DNA from: a virus
Taxonomy: Duplodnaviria; Heunggongvirae; Uroviricota; Caudoviricetes
Reading direction: 5' to 3' (one strand)
IMG/VR virus record: IMGVR_UViG_2563366802_000013
Coordinates: 1-44,878 of that record
Length of the DNA: 44,878 nucleotides
Under the pieces are notes generated by a model that was not told the origin of the DNA, ran no database searches, and worked only from the letters and a program-made list of their open reading frames with translations. Positions 8,261-9,108 of this stretch are shown one piece after another. The stretch's first letter is position 1, and each line of letters starts with the position of its first letter. A program made the translations under genes and the position numbers.

Positions 8261-8714
8261 ATTCGAAAAACTCCACTTTAGTGAATGCCCGCTGAATGAC
8301 CAGCAATGAATCCATGCGTACGCTTCCGTTCTCGCCGCGCGAGTGCAGCGCCTGCCTGTTCAGTACCAGGCCAACATGTGCCGGCTGCGCGCCGCGGTAC
8401 CCGACGAATATTCCGCCCTCAACTGGCTTGTCGACCGGGCGCCAGAAAACGACATCACCCTGATAGCAGGTGAAGAAGTCCTCACCGGCTTCGTAGTCCG
8501 GCGTCTGGTGCAGCTCAATGCCGAGGACGTGCCGGTAATACAAGACCACCAACGCCCAGCAATCCATCGCACCGAATGTGCAACTCCTGTTGGCCCATGG
8601 CTTTCCAATAACAGCTTTGATGAAGTCGGATTTATCCATGTCACTCACCGTGGCGGGATGTAAAACCTTCATGACAGCGAAGAGCTTCAGCGCGAGCGGT
8701 ACATGCATCTTCAA
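8247..8714 (-). CDS. Tail assembly protein with NlpC/P60 cysteine peptidase domain (lambda K-like)
   Basis: Cys in DCWALV and His in HVGLVL consistent with NlpC/P60. True start is probably an internal Met near 8639-8672, because the track ORF overlaps the upstream HNH gene. Confidence 0.7.
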   Translation of the reverse strand: MKMHVPLALKLFAVMKVLHPATVSDMDKSDFIKAVIGKPWANRSCTFGAMDCWALVVLYYRHVLGIELHQTPDYEAGEDFFTCYQGDVVFWRPVDKPVEGGIFVGYRGAQPAHVGLVLNRQALHSRGENGSVRMDSLLVIQRAFTKVEFFEYGVD

Positions 8715-9108
8715 AGTTTACGAACTTCCCAAGGTGCTTCTTGCAAAGTCTCGCAACCCATTTTCCGGTGTTTTTGTCAAAACAAACTCCTGTCACTCCT
8801 GAGGTGTTTTTCGAGCTTTTCCGCCTATTTCGCTGGTTAATGCTGTTGGTTGCCAGCCTGAGGTTTTCAATATTATTGTTCAGTCTTTCGCCATCAATAT
8901 GGTCAACTTGATAGCCTGCAGGAATGGGTCCATGGTGCATCTCATAAATAATCCGATGCGCAAGATAAAATTTTTGGTGAAGAACAACCCTGACATAACC
9001 CTTGCCGTCGCGATTTTTAACTTCATCACCAGCTTTTACTGGACCTCTATGGCTATGCATCCAAAAGAGTTTTCCATCTCGATATTCGAAATAATCACTC
9101 CAATTCAT
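8641..9108 (-). CDS. HNH homing endonuclease with AP2-like DNA-binding domain
   Basis: 155 aa; HNH core YQVDHIDGERLNNNIENLRLAT; free-standing inside the tail gene cluster; paralog of ORF 29025-29546. Confidence 0.8.
   Translation of the reverse strand: MNWSDYFEYRDGKLFWMHSHRGPVKAGDEVKNRDGKGYVRVVLHQKFYLAHRIIYEMHHGPIPAGYQVDHIDGERLNNNIENLRLATNSINQRNRRKSSKNTSGVTGVCFDKNTGKWVARLCKKHLGKFVNFEDACTARAEALRCHEGFTSRHGE

Follow-up and report, generated by a model that had tools for sequence, protein, structure and literature searches.

A probable free-standing homing endonuclease gene with HNH and AP2-like domains at a tail-gene junction of a temperate enterobacterial phage

Why does a temperate phage carry a nuclease gene between two of its minor tail genes, and does that gene serve the phage or itself? 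The question arises in the IMG/VR virus record IMGVR_UViG_2563366802_000013 (Duplodnaviria; Heunggongvirae; Uroviricota; Caudoviricetes), which was analysed over its whole stretch of 44,878 nucleotides (nt), here called the window, and which is by sequence comparison a CobraSix/ES18-like temperate siphovirus sequence. A protein identical to the nuclease is annotated in the chromosome of Citrobacter freundii, so the window is probably a Citrobacter prophage. The original prediction, made from the window alone, described an HNH-AP2 homing endonuclease lying as a selfish mobile insertion between an L-like and a K-like tail gene. Our analysis makes it very probable that the gene is a free-standing homing endonuclease gene (HEG), located at the L-K junction and encoding an I-HmuI-like HNH domain of the HNN type followed by an AP2-like domain; that it homes is what we infer. 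The gene and its two domains are placed as follows (aa, amino acids; ORF, open reading frame).

8641..9108, minus strand: free-standing HNH-AP2 endonuclease gene, 155 aa (ATG at 9108, TGA at 8643-8641; from the ORF list, Pfam and PHROG)
8830..8967, minus strand: HNH_3 catalytic core (His-Me finger, HNN-type), residues 48-93, with D69-H70, N78, N82-L83-R84 and N91
8674..8802, minus strand: predicted AP2/ERF-like DNA-binding domain, residues ~103-145, a three-stranded sheet plus helix in the model

The 155-aa ORF matches the full Pfam HNH_3 profile (PF13392, profile positions 1-46) with residues 48-93, at an E-value of 1.3e-22 and a score of 79.5 bits that passes the curated threshold of 24.8, and it matches PHROG 99, 'HNH endonuclease', at an E-value of 3e-57. 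Judged by these scores, the HNH identity of the ORF is far beyond chance, and together with the annotation of the neighbouring genes they bear out the predicted HNH gene between L- and K-like tail genes. Across 35 aligned homologues, D69, N82, L83 and R84 are invariant, and H70, N78, N91 and N94 are conserved at 90% or more. The nearest solved structure by sequence is I-HmuI (1U3E), aligned to residues 22-104 with an E-value of 0.0017 over a region that includes 'vdHkDGnkdNNlstNLRwvTqkiN'. The same structure is the top Protein Data Bank match returned by Foldseek (1u3e, probability 1.0, E-value 5.6e-4, 96 aligned columns) for an AlphaFold model computed from the 35-homologue alignment (mean predicted local distance difference test score, pLDDT, 90), and in this model the protein has the β-β-α-metal fold.

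The predicted AP2 domain has some support from fold and family and falls short at the level of the sequence score. In the model, the C-terminus is built from strands 108-111, 116-121 and 124-129 and helix 132-144, with pLDDT of about 85-94, and Foldseek pairs it with the AP2 domains of WRI1 (WRINKLED1; 7wq5, probability 0.99, weak E-value of 0.1) and AtERF1 (1gcc, probability 0.80, TMt 0.58, weak E-value of 0.74). Precomputed matches to Pfam AP2 (PF00847) are present on many of the homologues, whereas on the window protein this profile reaches an E-value of 0.0025 and 18.5 bits against a cutoff of 33.3, over profile positions 1-21 of 54. The domain is named 'AP2-like' here because its topology fits, but the sequence match is sub-threshold and the Foldseek E-values are weak.

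The gene is intact and under purifying selection. Compared with its 94-95% identical variants, the ratio of nonsynonymous to synonymous substitution rates (dN/dS) is 0.06-0.08 at a dS of about 0.3, which implies that the protein is maintained. A nucleotide search of the phage collection with the HNH gene gave no match even at blastn sensitivity, and the closest protein in that collection is only 50% identical.

The original prediction proposed to look among related phages for an intact L-K junction, and such junctions turned out to be frequent. With the L protein as bait, 17 GTDB and 80 IMG/VR loci were collected (80 of 408 IMG/VR relatives were taken in), and junction states were counted over those 79 IMG/VR loci with an L protein of 96% or higher identity to that of the window. 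The HNH gene of the window (95-100% identical) occupies the junction in two of the 79 (L037 and L106), a second HNH type (46-49% identical, type 2 below) in 11, and the junction is empty in 66. Enterobacter phage CobraSix and Cronobacter phage ENT47670 align with the window on both sides of the insert and have no HNH gene there; relative to ENT47670, the window carries about 485 extra nt (8631-9115). The L-K junction of BHUENT6, which with these two makes up the nearest phage genomes, is likewise without HNH, a different HNH-like ORF of 175 aa being located between its K and J genes. Among close relatives, the gene is a presence/absence polymorphism at a single site, as for a free-standing HEG, and an HNH gene present in all relatives at the same place, which would have spoken for a domesticated function, is not what is seen. 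Beyond the close relatives, the same HNH lineage fills the exact L-K junction in prophages of six genera, and homologues from 94% down to 47% identity all lie at this junction, with one 46% homologue elsewhere. The occupancy of the junction in six genera indicates that site-specific homing, rather than domestication, is the probable cause.

How the gene has moved can be read from two tracts that surround it or adjoin it.

8533..9148, minus strand: block of 616 nt identical to IMG/VR contig L037, made up of the HNH gene with 33 nt from the end of L and 107 nt from the start of K
8554..8628, minus strand: tract of 18 private, HNH-linked variants in the K 5' end, with the coding sequence ...IKAVIGKPWANRSCTFGAMDCWAL

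Between the window and L037 there are no mismatches in 9148-8533, and identity breaks at 9149, beyond which 31 mismatches fall within 178 nt of L (9326-9149); below 8533 the divergence is about 8-10%, and overall the flanks of L037 outside the block differ by about 8-17%. By hand arithmetic, a mismatch-free run of 616 nt at a background divergence of about 7% has a probability of roughly 1e-19. The block 8533-9148 is likely the unit of the most recent transfer, and the alignments show a gene that has moved between phage backgrounds as a block of ~0.6 kilobases (kb), taking along ~12-33 nt from the end of L and ~90-107 nt from the start of K. A shorter stretch is shared with L106 and L004: the last 35 nt of HNH and the first ~86 nt of K (8554-8675) are identical to those of the window, whereas the HNH body of these two loci differs at about 8% of nucleotides (dS about 0.3). 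The chance of such identity at that divergence is about 4e-5 (again by hand arithmetic), and it could reflect a separate, more recent exchange or a constraint at the nucleotide level.

The K side of the block is foreign to its surroundings. The first ~90 nt of the window K (…IKAVIGKPWANRSCTFGAMDCWAL) are unlike those of nearly all close relatives, whether empty or type-2 (…IGVPWANRACSFEKVDCWGL), and resemble those of K in distant prophages that bear HNH (in Salmonella, Serratia, Klebsiella and Providencia), where the same protein variant as in the window, GKPW.NRSCT..AMDCWAL, occurs. At 18 positions the window has a base that no more than 5% of 65 distinct empty-site sequences share; these positions all lie in 8628-8554, and the next 73 nt (8553-8481) hold no variant that is rare by this measure. 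The tract looks like a co-conversion tract, and 8554-8628 is a candidate both for co-conversion and immunity in HNH-bearing phages and, in HNH-less alleles, for the position of the target. Two empty junctions carry related patches: L090 has a patch of the HNH-linked K variant (NRSCTFDAMDCWAL), and in L054 the K protein has DCWAL and the ~20 nt that follow match those of the window exactly. Both have the look of recombinants from which HNH was lost, or in which conversion was only partial.

Composition and divergence set the gene apart from its flanks as well. The GC content of the window HNH gene is 0.44 as against 0.56-0.57 in L and K, a dip of 12-13 points, and along the window it is 0.42-0.47 across the insert against about 0.56 on either side. 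In every lineage HNH has a GC content of 0.37-0.44 (0.37-0.41 outside that of the window) compared with 0.43-0.58 in the flanks, which places it 12-18 points below the flanks in most lineages and only about 5 below in Providencia. Identities to the window proteins are 48% for HNH, 97% for L and 88% for K in the Enterobacter loci, in contrast to 77%, 49% and 57% in Salmonella and 63%, 40% and 53% in Klebsiella; on these comparisons HNH and flank identities are grossly incongruent, in both directions. The selfish mobile insertion proposed originally is supported by the sporadic presence of the gene, its GC dip, the 616-nt block, the foreign 5' end of K and this incongruence.

The empty junctions, compared in loci L019-L115 (L end at about 3468 in locus coordinates), have two architectures that reveal how the cassette is fitted between the genes. 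In class A (37 IMG/VR loci), the ATG of K lies inside the 3' end of L (…CTCTATGACCC…CAGTACCTCTGATTTT…) and the genes overlap by 38 nt. In class B (29 IMG/VR loci), the internal ATG is lacking (…TTATACGATCC…), the stop of L is TAA, and an ATG 9 nt after this TAA serves as the start of K, whose protein begins MTKDEF…. The L 3' end of the window is of the class B kind, the internal K-start ATG of class A reading TACGAC in the window L, and the class B L 3' haplotype (GKLYDPRE) is common to the window, L037 and the type-2 alleles. This haplotype could be a footprint of HNH loss or a preferred site of entry. In L004 and L106, which carry the 94-95% HNH variant (4001-4513 in L004), the 3' end of L follows class A until ~12 nt short of the stop, which means that the cassette's left boundary is at most about a dozen bases away from the L stop. 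The ancestral K start is here kept inside L, and since it now reads in frame into the HNH gene, the product is a 170-aa form of the enzyme (P0001) with 15 extra N-terminal residues (MTQRNTLAFSICEVD-MNW…). In the window the recoded L end is retained by the cassette, which also brings in a new start for K (MDK-SDF...), separated from the HNH stop by one base. As these alleles show, the cassette separates two formerly overlapping genes and re-creates the downstream start, in a design that leaves both tail genes functional.

The cleavage activity of the HNH protein and its target site are predicted, and the cycle of cleavage, repair and protection that we propose is modelled on the behaviour of free-standing HEGs (T4 Seg/Mob, PMC2988022, PMC2790892; HNH-AP2, PMC2248197, PMC10448857). 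Expressed from the late tail operon via its own Shine-Dalgarno site, the enzyme would act in a cell shared by two phages or prophages of which one bears HNH and the other lacks it, and there it would nick or cut the HNH-less allele near the L-K junction. Recombinational repair from the HNH-bearing genome would then copy the gene together with a flanking variant tract, and the linked tract would make the recipient resistant to further cutting. The likely target would be the GC-rich K 5' segment of alleles that lack HNH (GGCGTGCCGTGGGCTAACCGGGCCTGC…), which encodes the active-site region PWANRAC...DCWG; it is placed there because the K-side tract (~90-107 nt) is longer than that on the L side (~12-33 nt) and always accompanies the lineage. 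The DCW motif we take to be the catalytic-cysteine motif of NlpC/P60 enzymes, and the putative target would encode the conserved segment just before it. AP2 domains are reported to prefer GC-rich sites (PMC10448857, citing Magnani et al. 2004).

Four observations weigh against homing as described. The tail region from the tape measure to J is highly mosaic even away from the HNH gene, as seen in sliding identity, so ordinary homologous recombination could in principle carry a passive gene. In Serratia fonticola, HNH has diverged from the window to much the same extent as each of the genes around it (65-69%), a pattern consistent with vertical inheritance over a long time in that species. The type-2 HNH gene occupies the same junction without the K 5' variant, so the proposed target position cannot hold for both lineages, and the AP2 profile remains below the Pfam gathering score for the window protein. 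The mosaicism and the even divergence in Serratia would suit a passive, formerly mobile passenger, that is, an old resident without self-drive that is inherited vertically, shuffled by lambdoid tail-module recombination and repeatedly deleted; so would the filling of the same junction in six genera and the HNH-linked K patches in the empty L090 and L054, which are expected after loss. We nevertheless regard this explanation as unlikely: the low dN/dS and the catalytic motif conserved in 35 homologues point to an active protein, the identical block is tight around the gene and reaches only 33 nt into L and 107 nt into K, the HNH and flank identities disagree both ways, and the GC content lies 12-18 points below that of the flanks in most lineages (about 5 in Providencia).

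That the enzyme has been domesticated, serving the phage in packaging with the terminase or as a factor for tail-gene expression, is scarcely credible, even with its position conserved at one junction across divergent prophages and its tight translational coupling to K. Of the 79 near-identical loci 66 lack the gene, as do the isolated phage CobraSix and the ENT47670 genome, a different HNH (46-49% identical) can fill the same site, and the HNH_3 plus AP2-like architecture is that of free-standing HEGs (PMC2248197, PMC10448857). The gene lies between tail genes, with the tape measure upstream and J downstream, and not beside terminase or portal; a packaging-associated HNH was rejected on this position and on the absence from most relatives. 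Alternatively, the gene could be a moron that encodes a competition (marker-exclusion) or anti-phage nuclease, cutting rival or superinfecting DNA and propagating itself as a by-product. Two HNH lineages alternate at the junction and a second paralogue resides in the nin region of the window, a situation that recalls the intron-endonuclease competition reported between phages SPO1 and SP82, and the marker exclusion exerted by T4 Seg enzymes. Such a role is mechanistically the same as homing and indistinguishable from it by sequence data, and no partner genes are seen; as a separate explanation, we consider it quite improbable. A self-propagating HEG remains the reading that we prefer.

Around the insert, the genes of the tail module, from the tape measure through PHROG 384, L, HNH and K to J, are all coded on the minus strand.

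10083-12590, minus strand: tape measure gene (PHROG/Pfam annotation)
9586-10083, minus strand: gene for a PHROG 384 protein (PHROG)
9116..9586, minus strand: minor tail protein gene in the L position, 156 aa (PHROG 396 'minor tail protein', E-value 2.7e-42; weak DUF1833)
9109..9118, minus strand: L stop (TGA 9118-9116) and 7-nt spacer, read as CTGTGAGGTAAATATG
8247..8639, minus strand: K-like NlpC/P60 minor tail protein gene, 130 aa (Pfam NLPC_P60, E-value 4e-07; PHROG 329)
5786-8260, minus strand: J-like tail protein gene, 824 aa (ORF/annotation)

The K-like label given at the outset holds, the product being an NlpC/P60 minor tail protein, whereas 'L-like' is a label of position; homology to lambda gpL is not supported by Pfam, which gives only the weak DUF1833 match. 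On the minus strand, the L stop is followed by GGTAAAT and then by the ATG of HNH, and a Shine-Dalgarno-like GAGG motif overlaps the L stop just upstream of this ATG. The HNH gene is free-standing, as it has a start codon (ATG) and a stop codon of its own and both are placed between the end of L and the beginning of K. The overlap with K that was noted originally is true of the mechanical ORF, which begins at TTG 8714 and runs 74 nt into the HNH gene. A true overlap of this length was rejected, as the aligned K proteins begin at the position of ATG 8639 both in the class B empty alleles and in every lineage that bears HNH, and this ATG is most likely the start of the K-like gene. It stands one base after the HNH stop (TGAcATG), and in related loci a 130-aa K product is called directly after the HNH gene, some gene callers having chosen a 141-aa form. 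In every HNH-bearing lineage compared, the K ATG abuts or overlaps the HNH stop, and from this arrangement we infer that HNH and K are translationally coupled.

A consensus scan found no minus-strand promoter-like site inside or just upstream of the insert, and no terminators near it beyond chance; promoter-like matches number 3 against 1.3 expected and terminator-like matches 2 against 2.0 expected, and they are located elsewhere or on the other strand. Since no promoter of its own was found, HNH is probably expressed from the late tail operon. Two other kinds of insertion were considered and rejected. For an intron-encoded HNH, no Rfam family matches 8000-9800 except for a sub-threshold small RNA match, and L and K are separate genes. 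For a transposon or insertion sequence, the repeats present are short direct and inverted ones attributable to chance, with no terminal inverted repeats or usual target duplication.

The second HNH lineage is seen at the L-K junction in L017/L019, L036, L044, L050, L053, L061, L067, L068, L076, L079, L091 and L096, at about 3469-4009 in locus coordinates. These type-2 genes, 46-49% identical to that of the window, have an AT-rich leader of 80-100 nt and a recoded L end (CTTCAATATTTATGA). In these loci K begins at an ATGA in which its start and the HNH stop overlap; after it comes ACCTCTGATTTT, which duplicates the class A overlap of the L end and K. A more far-reaching reading, which we offer tentatively and with more doubt than conviction, would see in the L-K junction a homing site of long standing for which at least two HNH-AP2 lineages of unrelated appearance compete, each of them tied to a recoded flank of its own (for type 1 a foreign K 5' end over the NlpC/P60 active-site codons, for type 2 a recoded L 3' end). 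The endonucleases would then target the DNA coding for the active site of a tail-tip enzyme and drive part of the tail-gene mosaicism, and they would have produced both the class A and the class B empty alleles, class B being the footprint of HEG loss.

Further HNH genes are found in the window and its relatives. A second HNH_3/AP2-like paralogue of 173 aa, 41% identical to the first, is encoded on the minus strand at 29025-29546, in the nin region directly after a NinB-like ORF (29539-29994) and in a local GC dip. In CobraSix and BHUENT6, the 1265-1571 nt of the window around it map onto only ~750-800 nt, which implies that neither phage has this copy; in the same nin neighbourhood of HK639, an HNH endonuclease is annotated. 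At neighbouring junctions of the tail module, relatives hold HNH_3 genes that are 35-37% identical to that of the window where measured: BHUENT6 (L002, PV874196) between K and J (3441-3968, minus strand), and L104 (2499-2990) and the Salmonella locus L005 (2947-3486) between the PHROG 384 gene and L. The tail module appears to be a hot spot for HNH genes. Downstream of the J-like gene, positions 2001-5500 of the window have a low GC content (0.37-0.46, against about 0.55 in the rest of the structural region), and related loci hold tailspike genes (Tail_spike_N) at this place; the segment is probably an exchangeable host-range module.

The general understanding of homing endonucleases is unchanged by this locus, which provides a clean natural example in temperate enterobacterial phages. 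Its value lies in a mapped transfer unit of ~0.6 kb, a candidate immunity tract of 18 nucleotide variants and two lineages that compete for one junction. For annotation, the HNH gene should be described as a selfish element and not as a tail or packaging component, and the K-like gene should be started at 8639. With its many natural empty and filled alleles, the junction is furthermore convenient for work on the target specificity of HNH-AP2 enzymes, a class with very little biochemistry.

Among known systems, the nicking homing endonuclease I-HmuI of Bacillus phage SPO1 (1U3E) is the best match of the window HNH in both sequence and fold, and the two share the catalytic signature D-H...N...NLR...N and an N-terminal β-hairpin DNA-binding region. 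The gene for I-HmuI lies within a group I intron, and the C-terminal DNA-binding module of that enzyme is of the helix-turn-helix type. The window HNH differs in being free-standing and in its AP2-like C-terminus, and the sequence identity is only about 26%. In architecture, the closer parallels are the free-standing HNN-AP2 or 'IPA-HNH' genes of the Xanthomonas phages Xp10, OP1 and Xop411 (PMC2248197) and of ICP1-like phages, HNH-AP2 HEGs being described as clustering near structural genes and marking exchange boundaries (PMC10448857); the HNH-AP2 architecture was first described by Magnani et al. 2004 (as cited there). The window gene resembles these in its two domains, its small size (~150-180 aa) and the presence of multiple copies per genome, and also in adjoining essential structural genes, in its sporadic distribution and in marking a boundary of genetic exchange. 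For the HNN-AP2 genes of the Xanthomonas oryzae pv. oryzae (Xoo) phages, however, no conserved flanks were seen and a sequence-independent insertion was proposed (PMC2248197), whereas the lineage of the window is faithful to a single junction across six host genera, and its host is a temperate lambdoid-type prophage, not a virulent phage.

With the Seg and Mob HEGs of T4 (SegG, MobE; PMC2988022, PMC2790892), of which SegG is also cited in PMC10448857, the window gene has in common its intergenic position between essential genes and the co-conversion of flanking markers. A cleavage site that is possibly displaced from the insertion site, as in T4, would match the ~100-nt K tract that always travels with the window gene. 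The Seg enzymes are of the GIY-YIG type, however, and MobE, an HNH enzyme, differs in its domain architecture and in the type of its host phage. The HNH gene of the window is very probably another free-standing HNH-AP2 homing endonuclease gene, of a class that is already known.

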